A stretch of 62,823 nt of DNA, counting the filler, from Dugesia japonica (taxonomy: Eukaryota): assembly GCA_001938525.1 (NCBI GenBank). It is 5 parts of 5 records of this genome, joined end to end, with 100 filler letters (N's around TTAATTAATTAA, not from the genome) between each part and the next. Parts side by side here need not be neighbours in the genome. Positions count along the whole stretch, not along the records: positions 1 to 10,318 come from MQRL01615544.1; 4 more parts are not named here. The stretch is one strand, 5' to 3'. The notes beneath the pieces are model-generated. The model had not been told where the DNA came from and did not search any database. It worked only from the letters and a program-made list of their open reading frames with translations. Below are positions 7,393 through 53,586 of the stretch, piece after piece. Every line of letters starts with the position of its first letter. Positions within the stretch are counted from its first letter, which is position 1. The position numbers were made by a program, and so were the translations under genes.

Positions 7393-7698
7393 TTATTTTT
7401 CTATAGTAAATTTAATGTGGTTTTTAAATTCATCATTTGACATATTTGAATAATTTTTTATTGGTTTGTTTTCTTTATTTTGTGAAATGTGAAATCGTTT
7501 CTCTAAAGATTCATAATTTCCACTAACATCTCTTTTTGGTAATTTTATAAAAATTTTTCTATTATAGGGGATATTATATTTTCTTAAATAATTTNTTATT
7601 GTTTTTTCATTTACATTATTTTCTCTACAAAAACTCAAAACAGAATTTTTAATAAAATCATAATCTTTTAGCACATTATAAAAAGTACTATTATTCAT
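7393..7698 (-). CDS. Small helix-turn-helix-like DNA-binding protein (paralogue of 42096-42506 and 42672-42971)
   Basis: SVLSFCRENNVNEKTI.NYLRKYNIPYN has HTH spacing. The same block and a downstream RD..G.Y.SL motif recur in both locus 2 paralogues. Confidence 0.7.
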   Translation of the reverse strand: MNNSTFYNVLKDYDFIKNSVLSFCRENNVNEKTIXNYLRKYNIPYNRKIFIKLPKRDVSGNYESLEKRFHISQNKENKPIKNYSNMSNDEFKNHIKFTIEK

Positions 7699-7721
7699 TT
7701 TTATAAGATAAATTTTTTAAA

Positions 7722-8451: not shown

Positions 8452-9737
8452 ATGGAAGTAAAGTTAGATTTAGATGATAATATTCAATTTTTACATACAT
8501 CAATTAAAAATGATTTACTTATAATTTCTCCATCAGCATCATCATTAAATAAATTAAATTCTTCAGGTGAAATAGTTTTTCAATCTTTACAGTCAACAAA
8601 TCCACTTGATATATGTAATTCAATGTTATACTTTGAAATTGAAATTGGTAAGGATGTAGATGTGACAAAAACAACTTTAGAAAATAATTTCTTTCCAAGT
8701 TTATTTAGTTCAATGAGATTTATAATAAGATCATCTGAAGTAGAAACAATACATGATCCAGGTGTAATAAGTACAATGTTAAATTTTATAACTACAAGTG
8801 AAACATGGAAAAAACAATATGGACAAATGTCAGGTTGGATGCCGGATATTGATGATGGTGATACAAAAAATAAAGGTTATGAAATTAGAAAGAAATTATA
8901 TGTCACTAAAAAATTTGAAGGTTATTTTCAATTGAGAAATTTATTTGGTTTCATGCAAAATTATAATAGACTTTTATATAATACAATGATAGAGTTTAGA
9001 TGTAATAGACAACTTAAAAATAAATTAATATTTTATGGAGAAAAAGATGAAAAAGTGGGATTAACAATATTAACTTTAGAACTTCATATTCCAGAATATA
9101 ATTTATTACCTAGAAAAGAATTATCAATATTAGAAAGAATAGCTACAGAAAAACCTATTAAAGTTTCTTATTTAAATCGTATAACAGGAAAAACTAATAT
9201 TGAAACAGGTGTAAATTATACAATAAAAATTAGTAGTTTAGCATATCAACCTAGATTTGTTTTCATTTGTTTTAAAGATAATAATATTTCAGAGGAAAAG
9301 AATAATAATCTATTTATTCAAAAATCTACAAAAACTAATAAAGATAAAGTTATAACAGATCATTATTTAAAAAGTATACAATTAGTATTAAACAATACTT
9401 ATTATCCAGTAATTAAATGTGAATTTAGCATGAAAAATAATAAAATGATTTATCCTTACATGGCATATGTAAAATGCTGTCATAAATTTTTACAGAACCA
9501 CAAATATCATTAATAGATTTTGGTAATTTATATCCAATGTTTTGTTTGGACACTTCAGCTCATGATGATAAAATGAATATTAATAATGTAGATGTAACAC
9601 TAAAGATTACAAAAGATCCAGATTTTAAAGCTACCATTCATTGGTGTATACTTGAAGAAAAACATATAGAAATGAAATTATCAAATAGTAAAATTGTTAT
9701 GATAGAAAATATTAAAGGTATTGATATATCATCTTAA
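8452..9737 (+). CDS. Double jelly-roll major capsid protein (Polinton MCP/hexon) with one frameshift near 9487-9491
   Basis: Motifs LN..GEI.F, NS.LYFE, ENNFFPSLFSSMRF...E.I..PG..STM, PRFVF and YPMFCLD.S..DV.L fit Polinton MCPs. Adding one base in the T run joins the 353-aa and 66-aa ORFs (via TEPQISLIDFGNLYP) into about 428 aa. Confidence 0.85.
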
Positions 9738-9741
9738 ATAA

Positions 9742-10318
9742 ATGGCATCTAAAAACTTTATATGTGAAGAATGTGGAAAAATAATATTAAAAAAAAATAA
9801 GTCAAGACATTTAGAATTATGCATAAATATTAAAGGTGGTGATCTTCAATCTAGTAAATTAACATCAACATTATTAAAACCAATAACTACAGAAAAATAT
9901 CCTAGTGAAAGACATTTATTTAAACATAATTACACTGGACCTGGAACAAGATTAGATATTAGATTAGATTCTGAAGGCATGCCAAATCCTGGTGAAGAAC
10001 CAACTAATCAAATTGATGCAGCAGCTTTAAAACATGATATTGCTTATAATTCAACTGATATTAGAGATAGACATATTGCAGATGTAAATTTAATACATGA
10101 TCTTAATAATATTGAAAATCCTACATTAACAGAAAAATTTCAAAGAGCTCTTGTAAAATTAGCAATGAAAGGTAAAATAATTATTGGTAGCGGAGGCACA
10201 AAAAACAATCCATTTAAAAAAAGTACAATTATAGATGAAGAATCTGAAAATGAAAGTGATGAAGATAAAGATATTTTATCAAAAGAATTACATAAAGATT
10301 TTAAAAAACCAAAACATT
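9742..10318 (+). CDS. Zinc finger + parvovirus-type phospholipase A2 domain + probable start of Polinton integrase (truncated by contig end)
   Basis: CEECGK..RH finger. NYTGPG is the Ca-binding loop and DAAALKHDIAY contains the catalytic HD of parvoviral VP1u PLA2. The terminal LSKELHKDFKK resembles the L..ELHKP.R start of Polinton integrases. Confidence 0.8.
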
Positions 10319-10418
10319 NNNNNNNNNNNNNNNNNNNNNNNNNNNNNNNNNNNNNNNNNNNNTTAATTAATTAANNNNNNNNNNNNNNNNNNNNNNNNNN
10401 NNNNNNNNNNNNNNNNNN
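10319..10418. other. Artificial contig spacer
   Basis: N44-TTAATTAATTAA-N44, which puts stops in all frames. Confidence 0.97.
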
Positions 10419-20293: not shown

Positions 20294-21479
20294 AGAAATT
20301 CTAAACTTATTAATTAATTCTTATTTAAATATTTAACAAACTGATTTCAATAAATTCCGCCTCAAAATACAAAAAATTAAATCTGCTTTTAAAAATCACC
20401 TTTCGGGTTTATTCTCTCTAATTTGCATTATCCACCATTAATCATACTTCGTAATAATATTCGCAATAATAAGGTTTAAGTCATAGTAAACAACTCTCGC
20501 TATCATCGAGTCTCAATATACACAATACTTGTTATCAACCTTCACCTATTGATTATTCAGTTATTGATTCAATCTGTTCATCGCTTATTTCATATAGTCT
20601 GCTCTTTAATTAACATTAAAATATATACTTCAAAACTAATAAACGGAATATTATTTACGTATTTTCACCTTAATAAAAAAAATTCCTTTGAAAATAGAAC
20701 TTTTTTGTGCTTTATTAACCAGTTAATCATCAACTTGTAATATATAAATTTAAACATTCATTTATTAAAATTCTAACCAATTACTCAAGAACATAATATT
20801 TACCTATGAAATTAATTTATTAATTAAAGCTTTTCAGAAAATTTTTTTCAATCAATTAACATTTAGAATCAACACATAAAAATTTTCAACTTTTATTTAT
20901 AGATTCAATATATTAAGAAATTATAATACACGAAAGAAAAATTGTAATATCCTTAAAAATAAAATAAAACACTTAAAGATAATGTTTTACCTACTTTTCT
21001 CATAATTATTTGAAAATTATTAAATCCATCATACTTAATATATTCAATCAATATTATTCAAATTATTTGCAATTTGAAAACCATCAAGGCTACTTTCCAT
21101 TGACTATCCAAACAATTTGGATTTTAAAACTCGACAATGAAATTACTAGTATTGTTATCCGGACTAATAAGTGGACAACTATTACTTTGTTACAGTGTAT
21201 AAAAATTATCTGTTTTGCTCATTTTTCGTCCTTTTAGTTGAATTAACGATTTAAAAGGCTAATATCCAAGTTAGTTTTTTTATCAATGTCGTTTAAATAT
21301 AATTATTTTGTCTTTCTATTACACTTTGATCTAATAATCTTTTTTCGTCTAGCTACCTTTGGTGTTGGAATCATTTGCAATTCCTGCTCAAAGAATTTTT
21401 TCTTGAATGATATTATCTTCAAAGTTTTTAATCACATACATGATTGTGTTTGGTTTGGTATTGATTTTTGATATTTGAA

Positions 21480-22855
21480 ACAACTTATCACTCCCACTAC
21501 TATGAAATTCTTTATGGATNNNNNNNNAAATATCTTTGAGATTCTAACATGATCACCGACATTAAATTTTGGTTTTATAATTGGTTTTGAATTTTTGTTT
21601 CAATAGCCTTAATTTTATTGAATTTCAGATGATACATCTTCAAATCTTGTTTCATTTAATCCCTTGTGACTTGTATGATTATAGCTAATAATTATTTTTC
21701 TTAATAAATATATCCAGATTTTATTACCAGTATGCACAAAGTACTTTTTCAATGCAACTTTTAATGTTTAATACAATCTTTAAACATATGCTACTTTGTA
21801 TTGTGCAAATACAGAATAATGATTAATCTTGAGACTTGAAATAAGAGTCTTGACTTTAGAATTGTAGAATGCCTTTCTCAAATCAGTTTGTGAATCTGGT
21901 TGTCAATCTTCAAACAATGTCTCGATTGCAGCTTCCATTCCATAAGCATATTTTGATTTGACTGGAACAACTCTCCCATATCTGCTAAATACATCGATAC
22001 ATATCGAACTTTACTTTTTTCCTTTAATAGTATTTGAATAATGTATCATTTCCATTAAAACCATTTGTCATAAATCTTCAAAACCAAGTGTTTTATGTGA
22101 GTTTTGTCTGAAATCTTTCAAATATTCGATATTTTAGATCGAACGCTAGTAAATCTGATAGCCACTGTTGCATCTCGCCTTTTTAAGTTTTTAATACTTT
22201 CCATAGTTTTTCTACTCCTTTAAATTCTGCTGGAATTTGCGGGTTTCTCCATGTCGTCTTCATTACCACAATTAGATGTAAATCTTAGATAAAGTTTTGG
22301 TAATGATTCCAAATTATTCATTGTTTATATGAAATTCGATATGTATTGTTTATGTACAATTTGCTAGACCTATTGCTGCTAATGCGATAGGTAGAAATGC
22401 AGCTAGAAAGCCCCATGTTGTTTGTACAATAATTTCTTCGTTAATTTCTTATTCGTGGTATGTACAATTAATAGCAATATTTTCTAGCTTTGCTTATAAC
22501 TACAATACCTCAAACTGTTTACAATAATCTCTAGTAAATCAACAGCAGCAAACAATAGAAATAACTACAACATTTTTCCTCTAGACTCTTTTGGAGCCTT
22601 CAATAATATGCTAAAATACAGAAGACTTTGTTGAAATTTCATAATTTTTATTAAATAACACATTGAGTTATTTGTTTTTAACTTTATCTGTTTCCTATTT
22701 ATAACATATAACATGGCGATTACACAATACCTTAAAAATTATATAAAACCCCTGATTTTCACATAATAAATACGTAACCGGTATGCCATTACATAACTAT
22801 GCTGTTGTTATTACATAACAATGGGAGTATTCTCGAACGCTACTATCTATCTACT
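21480..22855 (-). mobile_element. Decayed Polinton locus 3: terminus-like end, small hydrophobic ORF remnant and integrase
   Basis: The minus strand begins AGTAGATAGATAGTAG at 22855. A WGFLAAFLPIALAAIGL remnant lies near 22370-22415, followed by the integrase. Confidence 0.6.
21535..22265 (-). pseudogene. Polinton-type retroviral-like integrase pseudogene
   Basis: Motifs CIDVFSRYG, QTD..KAFYN, INHYS, TLK..L.KYF, YNHT.H and KFNVGDHVRISK, with many stops. Confidence 0.85.
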
Positions 22856-31931: not shown

Positions 31932-32889
31932 ACCAATCAAATTAAAGGTCATAAAATAAAAAATCAAAGCACATTTGACATACAAAATCTTTTCCATCAC
32001 ATTACTTCTCCAAAAATCCATCTACCAACAAATTCCAACAAATCCATACAAACCTACAGCCCTCCGAAAATCATCCCACGATAACTCATAAAATTGTGCC
32101 CGTGTGCCACCATAGTTGTAGGACAAACCATCCATCCAATCTCATAAGTCCTTTAGACAATATATAGACCAAATTTTTATCCAACATCAAAAAAATTTTT
32201 CAAAACTCCGAAAAAGTTATTTCCAAAATCTCCAGCTCCTCCTCCTCCGTTTTTCCACTCTTTCACACACACACACAAACTCAACTTGACCTAATTTTTA
32301 AAAACCACGTTAACAACCCAAACACATAAAAATTTTAAAATTTAAAAATACACACACACAAACCACCAGGATAAAAAAAATGATCCGATCAAAAAAGATT
32401 TTGATTCGATCAAAAATTTTTTGATCCCAAAAATCTTAGTAAAAAAAAAACAACACAAAAATCATAGTTAAAAAACGCAGCTCAAGCGTAATGTGTTTCC
32501 GAGCCCCCCCGGGGGGGTCCCTCGATAACTGCTTAAAAAATTGTGCCTGAATTTTGGCTGATTGCCAAATTGTGCCCGTGTGCCACTATCCCCCTACTGT
32601 ACATGATTATAATAATGCAATTCATAGTTCTATTAATGTAACTCCGAAAGAATCTAGTGAAAATCCAGATAAAATAAAAGAAATAATCGAAGATCATACG
32701 AAAATGATAACTTTAGTTTTAAACAAAATTTAAAATTAGAGATCGAGTTAGAATCTTTAAATATAAATTTGAAAAAGGTTTTACAGCTAAATGGACAAAT
32801 GAAATATTTATAAAAACCCAAGTTTACAAGACGAAACCTTTTACTTATGGAATTAGTGATTTAGAAAATGAAGAGTTTAGGTAGATTTT

Positions 32890-33306
32890 ATGATGATAAT
32901 TTTCAGAAAACGGTTTTATAAATTTAAAATTAATAAAGCAATAATGTTTAAATTTATTTTAAAAGGTACTTTAGAAAAAGAATTTATTGAAATTGTTAAA
33001 GAAGAATTAATTAAAATTGATAAACAAGAGTTAAAAGAAGAAATTAAACAAGAGTTAATAGAAGAATTAAAAGAAATTTTAAAAGATGAAATCAATAAAA
33101 TAATTCCATCACAACCTGTTCGTCCTAAACTAGTTTCTGATTATATTAATAATAAATATAATGATAAAGAAAGGTATAATAAAACAACATCAGAAATAAA
33201 TAAATTATTATTCCGACATTTTGGAAGATCTGATACTTCTGGTTTGGAAGTGTTCAGCTTGAGGGTATTAGATTGTGTAATAAATAAAATTATTAATGAT
33301 GAGTGA
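32890..33306 (+). CDS. Polinton hypothetical protein (E/K-rich coiled coil)
   Basis: Open 138-aa frame at the head of the + strand gene array. The start may be a later ATG. Confidence 0.55.
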   Translation: MMIIFRKRFYKFKINKAIMFKFILKGTLEKEFIEIVKEELIKIDKQELKEEIKQELIEELKEILKDEINKIIPSQPVRPKLVSDYINNKYNDKERYNKTTSEINKLLFRHFGRSDTSGLEVFSLRVLDCVINKIINDE

Positions 33307-33346: not shown

Positions 33347-33706
33347 ATGAGTAAAACCCCATTAATCTGGAATAAAAATAAAAACTGCTGTTGCAAGTAC
33401 AGTTAGTAATTCAAGATCTGCTCAAGCGCAAGCTCTAAAAAAATAAAAAAGCAAAAAGAAATTGAATTAGTTGAATTACAGAAAAATAAATTACAAGAAA
33501 ATCCAAAAGAGTTAGATAAAACTAGTTCTGGATGTGGACTTAACTTAAAACCTTATCAAGGAAGTACAATTCATAAATATTTTAAAAATAGTTTAAGTAA
33601 TTCAAATCCCCAATTAAAGATTATTACTAAAAACTTTTAAAATGGGATAAAAGTTAAAATAAAAGGTGATGGTTTATATTTAAAACCTTTTAAAAATGGA
33701 CACTGA
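33347..33706 (+). pseudogene. Basic core-like protein with G.GL.LKP(Y/F) motifs, frameshifted
   Basis: SSGCGLNLKPY and IKGDGLYLKPF are motifs typical of small Polinton virion proteins. Confidence 0.6.
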
Positions 33707-34494
33707 ACAAATAACAGAAAGAATAAAACTTTTGAAAGAATTAATTAAAGCTCAAGATAATTATGATAATTTATATACTGGAAATGTAATTGAATGAAGA
33801 ACTTTACAAGATACTTTAACTATTCAACAACTTCCTACTTTTAAAGCAATTGAAAAACCCAGAAGGCCCCAATTAGATGATAAACCTAAAATTCCCTTTA
33901 AAAATAGAATACCATTCTTTACAAATACTAATTTTAATACTGAATTTTGAAAAGTGCCATCAGTTATACCAATATTTTTAACAGAAGCTATTAATGGTAA
34001 AAATTTTCAAAAAATAATTTATCCTAATCTTAGAGGATCTATAACAGAAATATATTTATTTGAAGAAGATGGAAGGAAATACTTTGAAAATAATAAAAAA
34101 TTAATTCCTTATTCTGAAGAATTAATGAATTTAACTTTAGGAAATGGAAGTAATGATCCAGAAGCAATTAATATTTATTTAAACAAATTTTACATTACAT
34201 TTCACCACAATAATAAATATTTTAAATTTTTAACTTGGGGAGAAGTTGATAGTGAAAAAGAAAAACCTAACGAAGAGTATTAAAGGTGAAGGTTTAAACC
34301 CCAAAGGTGATCCCATAACTTTATTTGAAAGATTAACATTATTAATTTCAGCTGTAAAAGCCGGTCATAATAATTTAAACAAAGAAATTAAATCTGTTTG
34401 TAAAAAATTATTAAAACAGGAATTAATTACTCAAGAAAAATATGTTAATAAAAATAAATATTTTTCTCAAATAAAATGTCTCATCAATTTTTAG
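33696..34494 (+). pseudogene. Conserved Polinton protein ending in the DP..L.ERL.LL.....AG.N...EI motif, broken into three frames
   Basis: The C-terminal GEGL..GDPITLFERLTLLISAVKAGHNNLNKEI....L....LI motif commonly precedes the penton gene in animal Polintons. Confidence 0.65.
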
Positions 34495-35182
34495 TTGTTG
34501 GTAAAGAATCTGATCTTAAAGTTAACTTAAGATTTCCAATAGAATTAGATGCCGGAGGTTCCAATTCAGAATATGAAATGGGATTATTATGTTTCAGTTG
34601 TTATAATATTATTTTTAATGTAACTAATAAAAATAATACTTTCTACTGTAATGATAAATTAATAACCAGCTTCGCAAGTGTAACTATAGAACCAGGTGCT
34701 TATGAAATTAAAAAAATATCTAATAAATTGTCAAAGTATAAAATTGAAGTTACAGCAGATCAATCAGCAACAAAATGTAATTTAAAAACAGAAAATACAA
34801 TTAAATTTGATGACAAATCTTTCTTTCATACAATTTTAGGTTTTTTACCAAACCAGTATCCACCAGGAAAATACTATTCAGAAAGTAAATTGATATTTTA
34901 AATATTAATATGATAAATATAATTTGTAATTTAGTTAAAAGTAATTACATTAACGCCAACCGACAAGTCTTACCAATGAATTTATTATATTCGTTTCCAG
35001 TAAATACTGTTGGTTTTGGTTTTAAAATTATAGAAAGACTTTATCCACTAATTTAATCAAGATTAAATTCCAAACGTATTGATTCTTTAAAATTTAATAT
35101 CATAGATGAAAATAATAATACTATAGATTTAAATGGACAAACTATTTCTTTATTAGTTCATATTAGAAAATGTCAGAAATAA
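34476..35182 (+). pseudogene. Minor capsid protein (penton, single jelly-roll), frameshifted
   Basis: FPIELD..YEMGL...YN.IFNV...NN.F, IEPGAYEI, ILGF, then INIICNLV and IIDENN..IDLNG..I...HIRK in shifted frames. Confidence 0.85.
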
Positions 35183-35692
35183 ATTATAAAATCCTACATT
35201 TTTTTAAAAACATTTGAAATAAATACAAAAACTAATTTTGATTTGTATTCTATTGCTAATTTTTTAAATTTAGAACTGGAAGTATTAATGAAAGATGAAT
35301 TAGGTGAACTGCAGTTCTCCTTCCATAATGTAACCTTTAAATATTTAGAAGATGCAAGCTTCTCCAAACATATGGATAAGTGGCGTATGCAGACGCCAGT
35401 TCCCTCACGACTGGAAGGAGTTCCGTTAATTATTAATTATCAAAATTCAAATCAAAAAGGAACTCATTGAGCTGCTTTTTACCAAGGATATTATTTTGAT
35501 TCTTATGGTTTAAAACCATTTAAAGAAATAGAAAAATATGTAAATTTTTGTAATGAAATTCAAGTTCAACCTTTAAGAACAAGTATTTGTGGAGTCTGGA
35601 GTTTAAATTCTTTATATTCACTAAGATCTCACAAATCTTTTGATGAAATAATAAATGAATTATATGAAACTTTTAAAGAATTACTTAAATAA
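35170..35692 (+). pseudogene. Adenain-like cysteine protease with a nonsense codon at the conserved Trp
   Basis: IIN......GTH(W>TGA at 35468), YFDSYG and QVQ...SICG give the H, D, Q and C catalytic set. Confidence 0.9.
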
Positions 35693-37546: not shown

Positions 37547-40500
37547 CTATATTAAACTATAATTTAATTTTCTTTTTAATTTATCTAATCTTAAATACCC
37601 TTTATCACAATTTTCACATTTAAATTTATTTCCATGCGGCCATGTCCTTATTCCATTATCATCGAATAATCTTTTATCCTCGTAACCAGGTAAAGCTATT
37701 TTTTTGTTCAGTTAATTCTATTTCATGTTTCTTTGATTTTAAACTATAATTAGTTCTATAAACTATTTCTTTGGGATTACTTAAAACTTCATCATAATGT
37801 TCCATTTCTATTTTATTAGTTTTTGAAACTTCTTTGTGTTTAGTTTCTATATTCTTAGAGCTGCTCGTATTATCTTGATCCTGAATAATATAACTCTTTG
37901 CTTTTATAAAATTACATTTAATTATTTCATTATTTGGTTTTTCATCTTTCATTTGGAATAAATTATTTCCTAATAAACTTGTTCCTTTGTTTAAATTCTA
38001 TTGTTCTTTTATTTCCATAAAAACACAATCCGTATCGCTGTAATGAATTTTATACTTGTTTGGTATTAATTTATCCATCTGATTATAAATGTAATCGTAA
38101 ATAACTTCTTTTGCATATTCCAAAATAGTAAAACCAATTTATGGGAATTTATTATATTTTAATTTTGTTTTATAAAGATGCATTGCTGCTGTTTTGGCTT
38201 TGCTACGATTAAATTCTCCTGTAAATATTTTACTTGATTTATAATTAATTTTACTAGCAAACTTTGGATAATTTTTTTTATTATCTACTATTTCAACATT
38301 ACACCTGTTTCTAATGGTTTCTAAAGTTTTTCCATAAAAAGCATTATTTAATAATTTAAAGAATTTATCCCCAAAAACATCCTTATTTCTTTTGGCCTAA
38401 TTTCTTTTATCAATATTAAATTGAATATAGTCTTTTAACCTAAATTTTATTGGCATTTTATATTTAGTATGAATTATTTTAATTTTTATTCCTAGAGAAA
38501 TATACAAATCTAAAGTACTTCCTAAAACTATATAATTTTGTTTATCAAATTGATTTAGTGTTAATTTAGTATTTTTCTTGGATAACGTTTTATTGAAACC
38601 TAATTGATATGGGGCCAACAATTTTTCAGTTATATTCAAAGGATCTGGAGCCAATGGAAAGTATTTTGTCTTTTCATGTGTCTCTTTTGGATATTCTAAA
38701 TCAACTTCATAAACATAATTAATATCCTTTGTTGATTTAGTATAAATTAAGTCTTTGCATTCATATAATTTTCCTGTTGGTAATGGTTTTGTCATACAAC
38801 TAGCATACAAAGAATTTTCATCTAAATATTTTAAATATGTTTCTTCGAAATAATCATCTGGAAAATATTTTTGTTCTGGATTTCTAAATATATTTAATAA
38901 ATCATCTAATTGAGCATTATTTATTGTTTTATTATTTCTTTTACTATTTCCAAATACTTGTCTTTATCCGCAAACACCTTAATATCCCCTCTAACCCCTC
39001 TTTCAATTTTAATAAATTTATCGTAACTTTCTTTCTGAGCATATTTTAATTTCACTTGAGTAAATTTTATACCTGCATTCCAAGTTAATTCTGGAGCTGA
39101 ATAACAATAACTTGGATCCAATTGATAATTATTTAAACATGTTTCTCTAAAGTTTTCAAAGTAATCAGCTAAAATAATTACATCTAGTTTCATATAATGT
39201 AACATATAATCCCATAAATTATTAAAGTTACTAACACCTTCGGCTTGAGCTCCGCGAAAATCATTTAAAAATTCATTATATTCTTGATCAGTTATTTTCT
39301 TTTGTCTTAATATATTGAATAAATCTTCTTTTGATGGAATGTTACTACTCTTTAATAATTCAATAACTTCATTAATATTATTTCCTTTAACGTATTCATA
39401 TGGAAATGGTATTTTTTTTGGTTTTAGATTAAAAGTTTTCAAATGATTATATTTTTCTGATTCATTTAATATTGAACCCATTTTCTCAACTGAAGTTTGT
39501 GTACACATTCTTGCTGAGTCTAAAAATCTTATTGATGGTTCTTTAGGATTCCCATTTTCAAAAGAAATATAAACTTCATCAGTATGTGGAATTATTCTTC
39601 TAACCTTACCTGGATATTTACTAATTAATTCTTTGAAAAATAAATGATTATCATAACCAGATGCGTTGTGGAAATAAAATGGTATAAATAATTTTTTTAT
39701 GGATTTATCTTGTAAATCACATTTACTGTGGGAATATCCTCTGAATTCCATATTAAAGTGATCATGATCGATTACTAGTTTTACAGTTATTGGTTTGTCA
39801 CAATATCTACATTTTAAATGAGCTTGCTCACTTTCCTCGAGTTTAGGAACTTCATCTGAAAATCTTTCGATTTATTTATTTTCCTTTATATCTTTTAATT
39901 TATTATTTAATTCTTCTAAGAATTCAATGAAATTTTCATAAATACTTTCTCCATAAAATTCTTTATATTCATTTTGGATTAAATGTTGATATTTACTTAC
40001 AATATAAANNNNNNNNNNNNNNNNNNNNNNNNNNNNNNNNNNNNNNNNNNNNNNNNNNNNNNNNNNNNNNNNNNNNNNNNNNNNNNNNNNNNNNNNNNNN
40101 NNNNNNNNNNNNNNNNNNNNNNNNNNNNNNNNNNNNNNNNNNNNNNNNNNNNNNNNNTGGTTAATACATTCTTTTTGATGATTAATTAATAAATCTTTAC
40201 TTCTATATGAATTCATACATCTGATACACAAATGATTTTGATTTCTATTTGTTGAATAAAATACTTCTACATTTCTACACAAAATAAAATGGTTTTTATA
40301 AACTAATAGATTACATTTATTTTCTTCTGGTTTGGGTTTAGTTTCATAATGATTAATATATAAAGGTTCAAGATTTTTAGATACATTTACAGTAAATACG
40401 TTTATTTTCCAATCATTTAACTTTTCAAATTTTTTAACGTCATCTATTTTTGTTGGAAATTTAATTCCTGTTGTATTTAATTCACCTAAATAAGGAATAT

Positions 40501-41373
40501 AATTACTAACTCTGGTTGGTTGATCTTTAAATACATGTTTATGAGCTAAAATTGAATANNNNNNNNNNNNNNNNNNNNNNNNNNNNNNNNNNNNNNNNNN
40601 NNNNNNNNNNNNNNNNNNNNNNNNNNNNNNNNNNNNNNNNNNNNNNNNNNNNNNNNNNNNNNNNNNNNNNNNNNNNNNNNNNNNNNNNNNNNNNNNNNNN
40701 NNNNNNNNNNNNNNNNNNNNNNNNNNNNNNNNNNNNNNNNNNNNNNNNNNNNNNNNNNNNNNNNNNNNNNNNNNNNNNNNNNNNNNNNNNNNNNNNNNNN
40801 NNNNNNNNNNNNNNNNCATTTACATCTTTATTATAATTACAGTTAACATTCATTCGGACAATAATCTTTATCCGATAATTAAAATACTTGGTAATTATTT
40901 CTAAGATTTCAGATTGAAATGCGTTTATCATTTTTACTGGTCTTTTCATTTGTTCAATATTTCTAGTTAATTCTACTTTACTTTCTCTAAAATATTCAAT
41001 TTCATAATCTTTATATATTCTAAAAATATCTCTAATTTCTGGATCGAAATCAATTGCTTCTTCTCCAGGTAACTCATCAAATAATATTTTATTAACTTTT
41101 TCTTTATGTTTATTTGAATTAAAATGTGTTTTTGCACGAATTTGGCTTGAAAATGTTTTACTACATATTTCACAAAACAATGGAACGTTTTCTGAATTTC
41201 CACAATTATTAGAATTTAAATGTTTTGTTAATCCCCTCATAGATCTAAAATCTTTTAGGCATTTAAAACAATTAAATCTTGTTCTTTCTAAAGGACAACA
41301 TCTTGATCTAATATGACCTGATAATACTGATTTATTTTTAAAAACCTTTTACAAAGTTCATTTTACTAGTCAT
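37547..41373 (-). pseudogene. Protein-primed family B DNA polymerase (pPolB), fragmented by frameshifts and gaps
   Basis: FHNASGYD (ExoII), FLDS, FPYEY, Y...DV..L...FE.FR (ExoIII), YLDENSLY..CM...LP.G (motif A), KLLNNAFYGK (B), YSDTD (C), MKDE and DKR. An EndoVII-like C..C...DHDH....RG..H..C and N-terminal C2H2 fingers are also present. Confidence 0.95.
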
Positions 41374-42095: not shown

Positions 42096-42506
42096 TTAAT
42101 ACATTATAATTTCTTTACTAATTTTATGATAATCTATCTTCGTTTGCGCTAGCTCTATTTTAGGTTTTTGTGTTTGTTGATTTGGTTGGTTTTGTTGGTT
42201 TTGAACTTGTCTAATAGGAATTTGATTTTGAACTGGTTTAGGAATTTGAGTTTGAGTTTGTGGTTTAGTAATTTGATTTTTATCAGATCGTTTTATTAAA
42301 GATTTATATTGCCCATTAGCATCTCTTTCTGAAAACTTAATATGTTTTTTTCCATTATAAGGAATATTAAATTCTCTTAAATATTTTATTAATATTTTAT
42401 CATTTACATTATTTTGTTTACAAAAATTTGAAACAGAATTTTCCATAAAATTATAACTTTTTAAGAGTTTATAAAAATCACTTTGTGTTATTTCTTGACT
42501 AACCAT
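42096..42506 (-). CDS. HTH-like protein with Q-rich tail
   Basis: FYKLLKSYNFMENSVSNFCKQNNVNDKILIKYLREFNIPYN is homologous to 7393-7698. Confidence 0.7.
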   Translation of the reverse strand: MVSQEITQSDFYKLLKSYNFMENSVSNFCKQNNVNDKILIKYLREFNIPYNGKKHIKFSERDANGQYKSLIKRSDKNQITKPQTQTQIPKPVQNQIPIRQVQNQQNQPNQQTQKPKIELAQTKIDYHKISKEIIMY

Positions 42507-42671
42507 TTTATTAATATAAAATTTTTACAGAAATAAACAGAATCAGACAGAACTTAATCAGAACTTAATCAGAACCTAACCAGAACCTTAACCATACCTT
42601 AACCTAACCATAACAAAAATATTAAAAATATTAATAATAAAAACTATTGTTTTATTCTGTTATTATATTTT

Positions 42672-42971
42672 TTATTTTTTCTTATTTTTTTTTAAAGTTT
42701 TTATTAACTCATTTTTTATTTGTGTTCGCTCAAATCGTTTTATTAAAGATTTATATTGACCATTGACATCTTTCAGAAAATTTATTGTTTTTTTATTATA
42801 TGGAATATTAAATTCTCTTAAATATTTTGTTACTGTTTTTTTATTTACATTATTTTGTTTGCAAAAACTTGAAATAGAGTTTTCCAAGAAATTATAACTT
42901 TTTAAAAGTTTATAAAATTATTCTTCATTTGTATCTAATTTGTTTGTGTTAGTATTTTTATTAGTAACCAT
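42672..42971 (-). pseudogene. HTH-like paralogue with disrupted N-terminus
   Basis: Same conserved block. Stops lie between the ATG at 42971 and the conserved region. Confidence 0.65.
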
Positions 42972-45900: not shown

Positions 45901-48811
45901 CCCACTACGGTGGCAAAATGTTGTTCAACCGATCAGCATAATTAAATTTTTAATATGATCAAGATTAATTCTTTTTTTTTAAAATTATGAACATAAACAG
46001 AAGACATTCAATCGGTCTTGAATAATTTGTTTTTAGTTGGTTGCTTAGCAACTTCTCTTATCTCATAGTGCACACCTACTATAAACGGGTAGTCATGTAN
46101 NNNNNNNNNNNNNNNNNNNNNNNNNNNNNNNNNNNNNNNNNNNNNNNNNTCATCATGAGTACAGACACTCATCACAAGGACAATGAGGGAGAGACAGTTA
46201 CAAACCATAAGTCTATCACCGGCAATCACCACCATCNNNNNNNNNNNNNNNNNNNNNNNNNNNNNNNNNNNNNNNNNNNNNNNNNNNNNNNNNNNNNNNN
46301 NNNNNNNNNNNNNNNNNNNNNNNNNNNNNNNNNNNNNNNNNNNNNNNNNNNNNNNNNNNNNNNNNNNNNNNNNNNNNNNNNNNNNNNNNNNNNNNNNNNN
46401 NNNNNNNNNNNNNNNNNNNNNNNNNNNNNNNNNNNNNNNNNNNNNNNNNNNNNNNNNNNNNNNNNNNNNNNNNNNNNNNNNNNNNNNNNNNNNNNNNNNN
46501 NNNNNNNNNNNNNNNNNNNNNNNNNNNNNNNNNNNNNNNNNNNNNNNNNNNNNNNNNNNNNNNAATTATTATTCTCATTTTCGATATTCATCATACATCT
46601 AGTGAATGATTTCTGGATTTTCGGCATAATGTAAAATAGTAAATCGTAGAAGGAGATAAAGGATTATGCGGTTCAGAGAAAACTAATAGAAAGACGGTTA
46701 TCGCATGCGAGACAGAAATGACTGAATGATTAACTGCTGATCTCTTACTACAAAATCATAGATACATTACGGCTGTTAGCATGAGGCCATGGATTATTCA
46801 GAATCTCTATCCTTCAGTGAATTCTAGCTGATCGTTTGGTCATTTGTTACAACAAATTGACATTGCTTTTACATTATTCAAACTAGTGGCTGCAATAGTT
46901 GAATGAAATTCGTGTTAGCATATCATTGATCGTAGAACATTTCGGTGATTTTTGGTAATATAAGTGTACGTGTATCCTTGAGACGGTATGGTGTGGAAAT
47001 GAACAATATTAATTTTTTAACTATCTTATGTACTGCGAATCATTAAAGTGGATCTAAAACGGAACAGTGAGTTTTATTCTATTTTAATTAGAAAAATTTA
47101 TGTAACAAATATATCGAATAAAATTTTGTTTATATTATTTTTTAATTTCGTAACATGAATTAGAAATTTTATTATTAATTAACATAAAATTACACAACAA
47201 GGAGAAAATCAATATACATAAAATTTACTTTTTAATTAAAACCAATTTCTTTTCTTCTGCANNNNNNNNNNNNNNNNNNNNNNNNNNNNNNNNNNNNNNN
47301 NNNNNNNNNNNTCTCTTACTACAAAATCATAGATACATTACGGCTGTTAGCATGAGGCCATGGATTATTCAGAATCTCTATCCTTCAGTGAATTCTAGCT
47401 GATCGTTTGGTCATTTGTTACAACAAATTGACATTGCTTTTACATTATTCAAACTAGTGGCTGCAATAGTTGAATGAAATTCGTGTTAGCATATCATTGA
47501 TCGTAGAACATTTCGGTGATTTTTGGTAATATAAGTGTACGTGTATCCTTGAGACGGTATGGTGTGGAAATGAACAATATTAATTTTTTAACTATCTTAT
47601 GTACTGCGAATCATTAAAGTGGATCTAAAACGGAACAGTGAGTTTTATTCTATTTTAATNAGAAAAATTTATGTAACAAATATATCGAATAAAATTTTGT
47701 TTATATTATTTTTTAATTTCGTAACATGAATTAGAAATTTTATTATTAATTAACATAAAATTACACAACAAGGAGAAAATCAATATACATAAAATTTACT
47801 TTTTAATTAAAACCAATTTCTTTTCTTCTGCATGGGGTCTACGGATGAATTAAAATCGAATAACATCAGGATAGTCTTCGTCTGCAATTTATTATACACG
47901 GAAACAATTGGTTTGTCCGACTAGTAATGAATTTTCTTCCTTTACTGACCACGATGGAGTCAAAACNNNNNNNNNNNNNNNNNNNNNNNNNNNNNNNNNN
48001 NNNNNNNTTCGACTAACTGTTTGTGATACCCACGATAATTACAACAATGTTGCTCCACAAAAATTTGTATTAATGTACTTAAAACACTGATGATATAGAT
48101 TGAGAATTCTAGAAATTTTGGTTTTTGTGAAAAGTTGTTGTTTTTGTTGTTAAAGTTAGGGGTCCTTTTATATGGTTTTCTTAACACCCCAACTTGAACC
48201 GGATTTGATGATTATTTTTAAATCAGCTTTTTCTTGATCTTACTGGTTACTGAACCAATTTTCCAAAATTTTCTAAACATTTTAGTTCTGCTATTGGCAG
48301 CTATTTTTATCGGCCCACCTGACATTTGATTTTTTGTTTTATTTTTAATTTCAGGTTTACTATTGGTCGGATCTAGAGAACCCTGCAGCAACCCTTTGGA
48401 AGGTGTNNNNNNNNNNNNNNNNNNNNNNNNNNNNNNNNNNNNNNNNNNNNNNNNNNNNNNNNNNNNNNNNNNNNNNNNNNNNNNNNNNNNNNNNNNNNNN
48501 NNNNNNNNNNNNNNNNNNNNNNNNNNNNNNNNNNNNNNNNNNNNNNNNNNNNNNNNNNNNNNNNNNNNNNNNNNNNNNNNNNNNNNNNNNNNNNNNNNNN
48601 NNNNNNNNNNNNNNNNNNNNNNNNNNNNNNNNNNNNNNNNNNNNNNNNNNNNNNNNNNNNNNNNNNNNNNNNNNNNGCATTTACCTTTGGCTTTATTTCT
48701 TTTCCTGCTAAGGTTGTTTTCAAACTGTATAATTTATTACCGGTGGTTATTGAAGTCCTGTTGATTTATTTTTCTGGCTTGTTCCCGTTTAGCGGGTGTT
48801 TCACCCCAACA
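42998..48811 (-). mobile_element. Insertion B of the TGTTGGGG...CCCCAACA family, 4-bp TSD TATT, nested in Polinton locus 2
   Basis: TATT|TGTTGGGGTCCC...GGTGTTTCACCCCAACA|TATT. The last 17 nt are identical to those of insertion A. GC-richer coiled-coil ORFs lie at 43192-44656. Confidence 0.85.
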
Positions 48812-51800
48812 TATTTTTCAAATTCAAAATACAAATAATCAAAATTAAAAGAATCAAAACTCAAACCAACAACCCGAAAAATTACAATTTTATATTTTTT
48901 TATTGTTTCTAATTTTTCTTTGGTTGGTTCTTGTTATATTTCTTCAACTATATTTTCCATTTTTCTTAAATAAAAATCAGAAGAATCAAAACTAGTAAAT
49001 TCAAACTAGTAAACTCAAACTAGTAAATTCAAAAGAATCAAAACTCAAAACGCAATTAATAAAAACATAAAGACAAGTAACGAGTAATCGAATACATATA
49101 ACTTACACCCAGAAATGTTAATCCATAATGTGCATTGACAATAATAATTATTTATGTCATATATTAATTTTTTTATGTTAGCGTTAAATGCCACATGCTG
49201 TATTTGGAGTGTACATTACTCGGGGCAAGTAGTATTTATTTCATTACTATCAAGAGTTAGGATTTCGTCGGACAACAGCTCAAGAATGCATAGTTAAACG
49301 AACAACTTTTAACTTTTATTGTAGAAAAAGGAGTCATTCATCATTTATAGAGTTTAAATCAATGCCTAGTTCAAATTAAACTAGCTGCTAAAAAGAATTT
49401 TATTATCCGAGAATCATTTACGGTAAAAGGGAAGCTTATGAGTAATGGAGATTTTACTGGAAAAACCTTATAAAATTGGGAATAGTATTGTTGATAAAGT
49501 ACTGGTGGTTGAAGAGTATTCAACTGAGTAATTTCAATCTTTCAAATTGTTTATAATTATTAATAGTTAATAAATTTTCATTAAAATAATACAAATCTCT
49601 ATCATTAGTTTTGAAGCTTAATAATTAAAATTTTTAAAATCCCTTACAAAATAACATACACCATTGAGTTTTTAATATAATAATTGAAAACTTTAAAAAC
49701 TAATAAAAAATCTTAAATTTGGGAAATAATAATGAATAATAATTTCAATATCATACAATAAATTTTGACTGAGAAATTTCTAAAACAAAGTAAAATGTTC
49801 CGGGANNNNNNNNNNNNNNNNNNNNNNNNNNNNNNNNNNNNNNNNNNNNNNNNNNNNNNNNNNNNNNNNNNNNNNNNNNNNNNNNNNNNNNNNNNNNNNN
49901 NNNNNNNNNNNNNCTGCACTAACTTCATTTTAAAAACTATACATATTTATCATAACAGGCAATTTTTTATCCAAATTAAACAAATTCTATAAAATACAAT
50001 AGAAGTTGACCAAAATTGACCTGCAGAGTATATCTTTGACTAAACTTGATCATGCTAAGGAAATACTTTACTTAAATTGTCCATTCNNNNNNNNNNNNNN
50101 NNNNNNNNNNNNNNNNNNNNNNNNNNNNNNNNNNNNGCCTTTGTATTTAAACAGTAGACCAACGGTTATAGTAAAATCATAGAAAACAATGTAATAAAAT
50201 AGACCAATTTATTAAGATTTATTAAATTTCCTTAATTTATAAATTTTATAATTTTCAATAGTTAATAAATTTTCATTAAAATAATACAAATCTCTATCAT
50301 TAGTTTTGAAGCTTAATATTTAAAATTTTTAAAATCCCTTACAAAATAACATACACCATTGAGTTTTTAATATAATAATTGAAAACTTTAAAAACTAATA
50401 AAAAATCTTAAATTTGGGAAATAATAATGAATAATAATTTCAATATCATACAATAAATTTTGACTGAGAAATTTCTAAAACAAAGTAAAATGTTCCGGGA
50501 GCTGCACTAACTTCATTTTAAAAACTATACATATTTATCATAACAGGCAATTTTTTATCCAAATTAAACAAATTCTATAAAATACAATAGAAGTTGACCA
50601 AAATTGACCTGCAGAGTATATCTTTGACTAAACTTGATCATGCTAAGGAAATACTTTACTTAAATTGTCCATTCGGAATAAATTTGTTAACAGATTCAAC
50701 ATATTAGAGAAAATATTCAACCGTATTCAACCAAAATTGACTAAAACGAGTAAATATTTGACCAAATTCAATAAAAATTGGCCATCACTATCCAATTAGA
50801 CTTTCCTGTGGAAATCTTTGACCAAAATCGACGAATTCTGATGAAATAATATTACAAATTTAAAAACCAAATTTCATATTAATTACAGAAATCAGGTCAG
50901 ATAAACGTGATTACGACATTGTATAATTAGATTAAGTGATTGATCTCATTACTCAACAGGTTTATGCTACGTCAAAAGAAGACAGTTGGCATAGAGCACT
51001 AGAATCTATATGTTACACACCCAATTCATTCAATCCAATAAATTAACTCAAAATAATATAACACTTGAAATAAACATTACAACACTTAAATAATGATACT
51101 TAATTATTTTTTAGAAACAATTTCTATGTTAGGAAGAGATGTATTGTTCTGATGCGCCACTAGCTATCTAATTACCATTAGAAACTCTAGTTTATGCACA
51201 CACAAATTCAATATATTCAATGTAGATAAAATCATAAGTTTAAACAGTTTATTTATTAAAATCTTTATCATTCTCCTCAAAATGGCCTTCTTCATTTCAT
51301 CATATCCAGATACTTATAGAATTCTAAAGGTAGAATTATTTGACATACAGAAACAGAATACTCAAATATAGTTTCTAAACTATTAATTGACCACTGATAA
51401 TTATTCAATATTGACAACTGTGAAAAGTGCTGTGTCAAAAAATCTTTAACACTTTGGCGAGAAATTAAAATCAAGATATTTATATGGTTTATAGTATTAC
51501 TCAAACTTTCCATTAAATTATTCAAATAACGGTTCAGTTTTATAAATGAAATTTGATCAGAATTATTATCAATCATTTCTTGATATTTAAGAAATTTTGA
51601 ATANAAATCTAATGCAGATTTTGCTTCAATATATGAAAGAAGACATTTCTCAAATGATTCTATTANATCAAATTTTAAAATAAACAAATTGAAAATTTGA
51701 TATAATTTAATTATTTCAGCATTGTATTTAACATCAACATTTGTAATGTTTGACGGATTTATTTGTTTTATCATTTTTATCAAATCTTTAAAATTAGGTA

Positions 51801-52131
51801 TTTTCATTAAAGTATCAATTAATAAACTTGATATTTGTATACATTTTCTGATTATCTTCCCATTATTGATATTATTAGATTTGAAATAATCAATNNNNNN
51901 NNNNNNNNNNNNNNNNNNNNNNNNNNNNNNNNNNNNNNNNNNNNTGAAATAAACATTACAACACTTAAATAATGATACTTAATTATTTTTTAGAAACAAT
52001 TTCTATGTTAGGAAGAGATGTATTGTTCTGATGCGCCACTAGCTATCTAATTACCATTAGAAACTCTAGTTTATGCACACACAAATTCAATATATTCAAT
52101 GTAGATAAAATCATAAGTTTAAACAGTTTAT

Positions 52132-53486
52132 TTANNNNNNNNNNNNNNNNNNNNNNNNNNNNNNNNNNNNNNNNNNNNNNNNNNNNNNNNNNNNNNNNNN
52201 NNNNNNNNNNNNNNNNNNNNNNNNNNNNNNNNNNNNNNNNNNNNNNNNNNNNNNNNNNNNNNCAGAATACTCAAATATAGTTTCTAAACTATTAATTGAC
52301 CACTGATAATTATTCAATATTGACAACTGTGAAAAGTGCTGTGTCAAAAAATCTTTAACACTTTGGCGAGAAATTAAAATCAAGATATTTATATGGTTTA
52401 TAGTATTACTCAAACTTTCCATTAAATTATTCAAATAACGGTTCAGTTTTATAAATGAAATTTGATCAGAATTATTATCAATCATTTCTTGATATTTAAG
52501 AAATTTTGAATATAAATCTAATGCAGATTTTGCTTCAATATATGAAAGAAGACATTTCTCAAATGATTCTATTATATCAAATTTTAAAATAAACAAATTG
52601 AAAATTTGATATAATTTAATTATTTCAGCATTGTATTTAACATCAACATTTGTAATGTTTGACGGATTTATTTGTTTTATCATTTTTATCAAATCTTTAA
52701 AATTAGGTATTTTCATTAAAGTATCAATTAATAAACTTGATATTTGTATACATTTTCTGATTATCTTCCCATTATTGATATTATTAGATTTGAAATAATC
52801 AATNNNNNNNNNNNNNNNNNNNNNNNNNNNNNNNNNNNNNNNNNNNNNNNNTAAAGTAGTTAATTCTCCGTTATGAAAAGGACAACTTCCATAAATTATG
52901 AAAAACATCTCCATGCAATTGGTACAAATTTTATGATTACAATTGGAAAATGTTGCATAAATATTTTCACAAATAATGCGTGAACATATTAAACACATAT
53001 CTTGTCTTGCCAAATGAAAATCAGGTTCGATTTTTTCATATAATTTATTATTATATCGTATAAGAGAAATAATTTTTGTTTTAATGTGTTTTTTTACTTC
53101 ACACATAACATCAATATGTTTCATTATCACACAAGAGATTCTTTGTCCAATATATGGAGAATTTGGTTTACCAATCATTTCTTCGTTTAATTGGTTGCAA
53201 GTTTTAAACAAATCGAAAGTTATGTTTTGCAAATTTTCATTCAAATTTTCGGTAAAACAAGTCCTGTAATTCAATTCATTGAATTGAATTTCTTTGTGTT
53301 TCACATAAATTTTTTCTAATAGAATTTGCTTTTCAGATTTCTGAAAATTTAAATAATTATAAGACATGTGATAAATGCTGTTTAATTGTAAAATATATTT
53401 ACTGATTTCCAAGCTACGATCATTAAACGATGAAAAATTTAATATTTCTTTTAATTTATTTAGAATGCTATTAATTTGCAAAACAG
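52132..53486 (-). CDS. RING-finger protein (5' end cut by contig end; C-terminus readable in the duplicate copy at 51292-51894)
   Basis: C-x2-C-x14-C-x-H-x2-C-x2-C-x10-C-x2-H at 52873-52995 within a long frame with no visible introns. Confidence 0.7.
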
Positions 53487-53586
53487 NNNNNNNNNNNNNN
53501 NNNNNNNNNNNNNNNNNNNNNNNNNNNNNNTTAATTAATTAANNNNNNNNNNNNNNNNNNNNNNNNNNNNNNNNNNNNNNNNNNNN
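53487..53586. other. Artificial contig spacer
   Basis: N44-TTAATTAATTAA-N44. Confidence 0.97.

Follow-up and report, generated by a model that had tools for sequence, protein, structure and literature searches.

How an endogenous DNA virus might make a phospholipase A2 (PLA2) and an integrase together, and separate them afterwards, is a question raised by one open reading frame (ORF) in a 62,823-nucleotide stretch of Dugesia japonica DNA (the window), which consists of five contig parts joined end to end. The original prediction placed a zinc finger, the motif IKGG, a parvovirus-type PLA2, the motif IIGSG, an acidic linker and the peptide LSKELHK in a single frame, and translation of 9742–10317 on the plus strand confirms this arrangement: 192 residues follow one another without a stop, with IKGG at residues 30–33 (9829–9840), IIGSG at residues 147–151 (10180–10194) and LSKELHK at residues 179–185 (Table 1). 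We read the ORF as encoding the N-terminal portion of a Polinton (Maverick/adintovirus) precursor made up of a nucleic-acid-binding leader, a PLA2 and an rve integrase, a precursor that would be packed and from which the clan-CE protease of the element would free PLA2 and integrase during maturation; to this reading, fusion and cutting taken together, we assign a probability of roughly 0.6.

Table 1. Features of the window that bear on the PLA2-integrase ORF and its element (↓, candidate point of cleavage)
Feature	Position	Strand	Remark
5' portion of zinc finger-PLA2-rve integrase fusion ORF	9742..10318	+	truncated at assembly gap
N-terminal zinc-finger leader, C-x2-C-x12-H-x3-C	9763..9825	+	Pfam matches below cut-off
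Site 1, I-K-G-G↓D-L, leader/PLA2 boundary	9829..9846	+	candidate GG↓X cut
Parvovirus-type PLA2 module, D34-G149	9841..10188	+	PF08398 E 3.4e-10
Site 2, I-I-G-S↓G-G, PLA2/integrase boundary	10180..10197	+	candidate GX↓G cut
Acidic linker, residues 165-177	10234..10272	+	length and sequence vary among homologues
Polinton rve integrase first helix, L-x-x-E-L-H-K	10276..10317	+	alignment with homologues
Artificial contig join, N44-TTAATTAATTAA-N44	10319..10418	.	frame of ORF enters N at 10319
Double-jelly-roll major capsid gene	8452..9737	+	two frames, 8452-9513 and 9486-9737; frameshifted
Broken C-terminal part of closely related integrase	32572..32915	+	best piece 70% identical to fused P0002
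Two small core-like genes, broken remnants	33410..34491	+	G-x-G-h at 33530, 33665, 34285; label inferred
Adenain-like (clan CE) protease gene	35183..35692	+	internal stop 35468-35470
Broken protein-primed PolB gene	38001..40558	-	30-33% identical to 1259-aa ORF of L028

The leader of the window protein carries the ligand pattern C8-x2-C11-x12-H24-x3-C28 and is predicted to form a beta-beta-alpha unit (pLDDT 81–89), with weak Pfam matches of which the best has an E value of 0.0084; in homologues it is mostly of the C2H2 type with H-x5-H, and its zinc ligands are conserved among the homologues that possess it. In the PLA2 the two predicted motifs are intact, the calcium loop YTGPG at residues 64–68 (9931–9945) and HDIAY at residues 98–102 (10033–10047), and are followed by a second aspartate, D114 (10081–10083). 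The match to PF08398 spans residues 57–127 and scores 40.5 bits against a cut-off of 23.9. Y64, G66, G68, H98, D99, Y102 and D114 are near-invariant across 81 non-redundant homologues; phospholipase activity is presumed. A fold search with the window model returned nothing with Z of at least 8; a rice PLA2 (2wg7) came second with Z 6.9, among unrelated helical bundles and not above the background of that search. AAV capsid chains, compared for the glycines that would flank a parvoviral domain, matched over the catalytic stretch alone (E 0.1).

Longer homologues carry both domains on one protein. Specifically, PF08398 and PF00665 are found together on 15 of the 15 longer homologues recovered among 776 candidates, and Pfam confirms the two-domain fusion for P0002, P0006, P0015, P0003, P0004, P0007, P0008 and P0013. 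The closest long homologue, P0002, is fused and 55% identical over 98% of the query; its full-length model has a mean pLDDT of 88 and finds as its best match a MELD-virus integrase (E 4e-23). In the alignment LSKELHK falls on the helix at the start of the integrase of the longer homologues, stand-alone Polinton integrases start a few residues ahead of the same ELHK motif, and the window frame continues without a stop for 14 residues into the integrase N-terminus. A PLA2 and a near-complete integrase share a single ORF in 7 of 36 metagenome loci (L003, L004, L005, L013, L021, L022 and L024). A near-length search gave 51 matches, a mixture of true stand-alone PLA2s and truncated fusions. Within the window no integrase core is seen in frame with the ORF, which reaches the gap first. 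The linker in this gap occurs four times in the window (at 10319, 22885, 31832 and 53487, all identical), so the gap is an artificial join and nothing past 10318 is therefore known to adjoin the ORF. Sequencing runs X1, X3, X8 and X22, compared with 8452–10318, yielded, among the contig pieces listed, none that reveals sequence past 10318; the RNA run, X22, gave 61 reads on this interval, on both strands and with 52 of them less than 90% alike. The predicted fusion is thus upheld by the homologues and by the LSKELHK helix, with the core itself absent from the window contig. We note that in another group of loci (L007, L009–L012 and L014–L016) stand-alone PLA2 genes terminate at G-A-G-N or G-A-S-V and a second ORF lies within about 25 bases, which is integrase-like where its length allowed testing (L011, L012 and L016).

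It had further been proposed that sites of the adenovirus protease, adenain, fall at the two domain boundaries. The adenain substrates have been quoted as (M/I/L/N/Q)XGG↓X and (M/I/L/N/Q)XGX↓G (PMC6048507), and adenain motifs have also been noted in adomavirus LO6 (10.1101/341131). Both window sites match the strict consensus, having glycine at P2 and a second glycine at P1 or P1', and IKGG and IIGSG are its sole two matches within the ORF. When the window protein was shuffled, at least two matches arose in 349 of 20,000 shuffles, and one match in each boundary window (residues 24–40 and 140–175, drawn after the data were seen) in 13 of 20,000.

For a survey of homologues we aligned 128 PLA2-bearing sequences and, leaving out the window protein, reduced the remaining 127 to 81 (<80% identity), which comprise 41 fused proteins, 27 classed as alone and 13 partial or divergent ones. 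At site 1, GG is present in 37 of the 52 sequences that have the aligned aspartate and at least six residues before it, the remaining 29 of the 81 having no leader or lacking the region. At site 2, GG or GxG occurs in 34 of the 41 fused homologues (27 GxG, 7 GG), in 18 of the 27 classed as alone and in 5 of 5 covered others. P2' is hydrophobic in every one of the 37 sequences with GG at site 1 and in 47 of the 57 homologues with glycines at site 2. M, I or L stands at P4 in 1 of 37 at site 1 and, at site 2, in 6 of 34 fused proteins and 14 of 57 over all classes. The 15 closest long matches behave alike: site 2 is kept in all 15 and site 1 in 14 (one is without the region), and P4 is M, I or L in five of them at site 2 and in one at site 1. 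The survey bears out both glycine sites, which lie in flexible linkers of the models; the part of the proposal that fails is P4, a difference from adenain substrates that leads us to reject the strict adenain consensus as a family rule. The family motif is G-G-x-h or G-x-G-h (h, hydrophobic) with P4 free, and since M, I or L at P4 is not conserved, the exact consensus in the window copy is a coincidence. Site 1 of the window copy fits the family pattern, whereas its site 2 has glycine at P2', unlike the hydrophobic residue of most homologues. Judged by its distribution, the pair of sites belongs to the PLA2 module, fused or not, and the motif to other Polinton proteins as well.

These glycine motifs are probably the points at which PLA2 and integrase are cut apart, inside the particle, by the protease of the element itself. 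Where the family is still active, the precursor would be packed into the particle by means of a leader that is basic or a zinc finger, and the clan-CE (C5-family) cysteine protease of the element would then cut after G-G at site 1 and within G-x↓G at site 2. The PLA2 so released would breach a membrane at entry, plausibly by escape from the endosome as originally suggested, and the released integrase would travel with the genome. The putative recognition code would be glycine at P2, a second glycine at P1 or P1', in most cases a hydrophobic residue at P2', and a free P4. Seven leaderless fusions (P0070, P0074, P0129, P0137 and L021–L023) begin M-(0–2 residues)-D, the mature N-terminus predicted to arise from a cut at site 1. 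The leader that precedes GG-D of the PLA2 is, on comparison of the family members, exchangeable. A Cys4 domain, DUF5679 (PF18930), or a short basic stretch leads to the same GG-D in stand-alone PLA2s (P0021, P0022, P0032–P0036, P0043, P0051 and P0057).

A different explanation, which we consider unlikely, is that the fusion works uncut and that the glycines serve as a helix cap and as flexible linkers, with G149 ending the last PLA2 helix and GG-D opening the domain. Indeed, G149 closes helix 129–149 in the window model and occurs in every one of the 27 stand-alone forms, the calcium loop of the PLA2 is a GxG in its own right, and a free P4 is what this explanation would also allow. Site 2 persists in 15 of 21 stand-alone PLA2s in which just 1–15 residues come after it (compared with the fused proteins, Fisher p 0.33, not significant) and is missing in 7 of the 41 fused homologues; that it is kept with almost nothing behind it fits a structural glycine. 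Moreover, a PolB-like ORF of L032 holds four motifs in 707 aa (two other PolB-like ORFs hold 0 and 1), so its occurrence extends beyond virion proteins. Against this explanation, GG and GxG interchange at the same position of site 2, divergent PLA2s having G-S-G-h or G-G-S-I on the N side, and the motif recurs four to five times in each of four unrelated small core-like proteins of 114–182 aa, compared with 0, 0, 0 and 1 times in four ATPase-like ORFs (both labels were assigned from motifs and position). The motif is also rare before stand-alone integrases, GG or GxG preceding ELH in 1 of 39, is absent at the C-termini of two stand-alone protease ORFs, and in its strict form occurs 11 times in the 50,650 residues of 184 integrase bodies. 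In the P0002 model the sole segment with pLDDT below 50 is site 1, and site 2 comes after the last PLA2 helix; in this and the window model each site occupies a loop or a segment of low confidence that separates folded domains. We note that some of the motifs in the small proteins (L003:2378–2923, L004:2410–2919, L028:800–1147 and L031:4351–4806) fall in 10-residue repeats, and that these proteins have a GG followed by a hydrophobic stretch, which resembles adenovirus pX.

A further observation against uncut fusions comes from proteins in which no PLA2 helix exists. Fusions of protease and integrase, some with a chromodomain, form a large family with 200 matches at E 0.001 or better (P0114, P0117, P0076 and P0217–P0334). 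The protease of P0260 matches Pfam Peptidase_C5 (E 4.4e-6) and adenain itself (1avp, E 0.001). We took the best 120 of the 200 matches together with P0076, 121 proteins with 88 distinct junctions, and found GxG or GG at 86 of the 88 distinct junctions among the matches listed, in a linker that is otherwise variable. In these fusions the protease may release itself from the integrase by self-cleavage. A FastTree analysis of 170 integrase domains, in which the protease-fused set was thinned to 17 and N-truncated members were dropped, placed 16 protease fusions in one clade (support 1.0), beside the PLA2-fused P0070 and P0104, and dispersed the PLA2-fused integrases over several clades; a few of the integrases labelled 'solo' may come from gene calls that were cut short. 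An independent origin of the protease-integrase junction is unsupported, nearly all protease fusions being of one clade; their single clade implies that the junction was probably inherited, and what it shows is retention of the junction after a swap of partner.

The nearest precedent for cutting at such motifs is mavirus, whose clan-CE protease cuts GG↓X and GX↓G (Born et al. 2018, PMC6048507); the retention of GG or GxG in an exposed linker fits this specificity. Mavirus virions contain the rve integrase MV02, proposed to accompany the genome, and the lipase-like MV13, the latter as two fragments with GK↓G between them, although mavirus encodes the two in separate genes and its lipase belongs to the alpha/beta hydrolases, not to the PLA2s (PMC6048507). 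In retroviral Gag-Pol, the rve integrase is the C-terminal part of a precursor, is carried into the particle and is freed there by the viral protease. Here we are dealing with a DNA virus that has a jelly-roll capsid, a cysteine rather than an aspartic protease, and PLA2 or protease as the carrier, and the likeness is an analogy and not homology of strategy. Adenoviruses, to our knowledge, encode neither an integrase nor a PLA2.

Less probable still is that the sites are cut by another glycine-specific protease, either the vOTU domain of PolB or a host SUMO or ubiquitin protease. We know of no GX↓G specificity among OTU or host SUMO proteases, and proteins associated with the virion bear the motif repeatedly. 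Polinton PolBs do carry a vOTU protease predicted to be active (PMC11161782), and GG↓X is a general motif of clan-CE proteases and deubiquitinases (PMC6048507); however, GX↓G, which is reported for adenain and the mavirus protease (PMC6048507), makes up the larger share at site 2 (27 of 34).

Polinton PLA2 genes, integrases and proteases are already known separately. The PLA2 is described as a gene of its own, as PLA2X (Starrett et al. 2021, PMC8502044), in Sf Mavericks as CAP (PMC5803895), and by Yutin et al. 2015 (PMC4642659). Those PLA2s are likewise of parvovirus type with catalytic and calcium-loop residues, are grouped in a capsid gene cluster that also holds an rve integrase, a C5 protease and a PolB, and have been proposed, by analogy with parvoviruses, to be packed and to help entry (PMC4642659, PMC8502044). 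PLA2X has a C-terminal pX-like domain, which is absent here, where a zinc finger comes first and the acidic linker and the start of the integrase come after the PLA2, all within one frame. Neither a fusion nor cleavage sites are named in the passages of PMC8502044. Neither the PLA2-integrase and protease-integrase fusions nor a Polinton cleavage motif is described in the literature searched, which does not extend to picture maps, Repbase, bioRxiv supplements and subscription papers. The same fusions and motif are absent from the passages of PMC3671162, PMC11161782, PMC5803895, PMC11131425 and 10.1101/2024.03.25.586562, and from those of 10.1101/341131, 10.64898/2026.06.19.733378, 10.64898/2026.10.13.758929, PMC6048507 and PMC4642659. 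The fusion may nevertheless have been drawn or annotated somewhere, and Pfam pre-annotation already marks both domains on the fused homologues.

Whether the pattern is general seems to us evenly balanced. On this wider reading, many Polintons would use a retrovirus-like polyprotein strategy with one code, G-G↓x-h or G-x↓G-h, for the substrates of the protease; the integrase would enter the particle as a tail, to be cleaved off, on a virion protein that can be exchanged, the carrier being the PLA2 in several lineages and the maturation protease in another, and the code would span PLA2, integrase and core proteins as targets of an uncharacterised Polinton protease. For Polintons, endogenous DNA viruses with a wide distribution, most of the picture of particles and life cycle comes from inference. 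A precursor of PLA2-integrase or protease-integrase type would be genetic evidence for a packaged integrase that acts on entry and is not solely newly expressed, and the motif predicts a list of substrates and the mature protein ends for the Polinton protease, targets undescribed in the literature searched.

The element to which the ORF belongs is a decayed remnant, its capsid gene being frameshifted and its protease gene interrupted by a stop. The capsid gene (PF21738, E 5.8e-9 on 8452–9510) lies directly upstream of the PLA2 ORF, and the order capsid then PLA2 recurs in loci L006 and L036. A separate contig piece, 32572–42524, holds the broken integrase end, the remnants of small genes, the protease and the broken PolB. 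In L003 and L004 the two small core-like genes stand after the fusion. The protease gene, on a different contig piece from the PLA2, matches protease homologues pairwise at E 2e-17 and has no Pfam match of its own, and the PolB remnant also stands on a different piece from the PLA2 ORF. L003 and L004 have an ATPase-like ORF near the PLA2-integrase gene; tblastn with the ATPase-like ORFs of L003, L004, L029 and L031 gave no match to a packaging ATPase in the fragmented window. Of 52 inverted pairs in 5000–46000, the 25 longest include no terminal inverted repeats that bound the viral pieces; the ends of the element are unassembled. A scan of a viral contig collection found no relative, and a phage collection gave no match. 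In two DNA runs, 14,047 and 12,555 short contig pieces match the 1.9 kb of 8452–10318, mostly at 90–99%, and these thousands of related pieces indicate a very high-copy endogenous family. The host DNA is AT-rich, and poly-A RNA runs exist for it.

That the window copy is a mere PLA2 with an integrase stub, its frame stopping within the gap, we think very improbable: the lack, among the contig pieces listed, of one spanning 10318, the unseen core, the decay elsewhere in the element, the two-frame arrangement of L028 and the stop followed by a separate, more distant integrase-like gene in L007, L009–L012 and L014–L016 would allow it, but the frame is open into the integrase, the closest long homologue is fused, and the window holds a 70%-identical C-terminal piece of an integrase of the same type.

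Several smaller observations concern the remainder of the window. An uncharacterised small ORF accompanies each of the two viral pieces and is oriented alike in both places, at 7393–7716 (-) and 42096–42524 (-), and again at 42730–42917; its copies share 78% DNA identity over 191 bases, which suggests that both viral pieces are of one family. A third, more distant integrase remnant at 21375–22127 (-) is about 30% identical to Polinton integrases. Broken ORFs at 34458–35182 (+) are minor-capsid-like by position and have no Pfam support; they carry motifs that we take to be those of a minor capsid protein. A C2H2 zinc-finger ORF at 40820–41348 (-) lies upstream of the PolB pieces (zf-C2H2_jaz, E 1e-10). 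Near-identical duplications (99.6–100%) flank gaps at 46741–47832 and 51066–52803, and these, like the identical linkers, are assembly artefacts. Finally, a RING-like cysteine pattern was spotted by eye in 52132–53538 (-).
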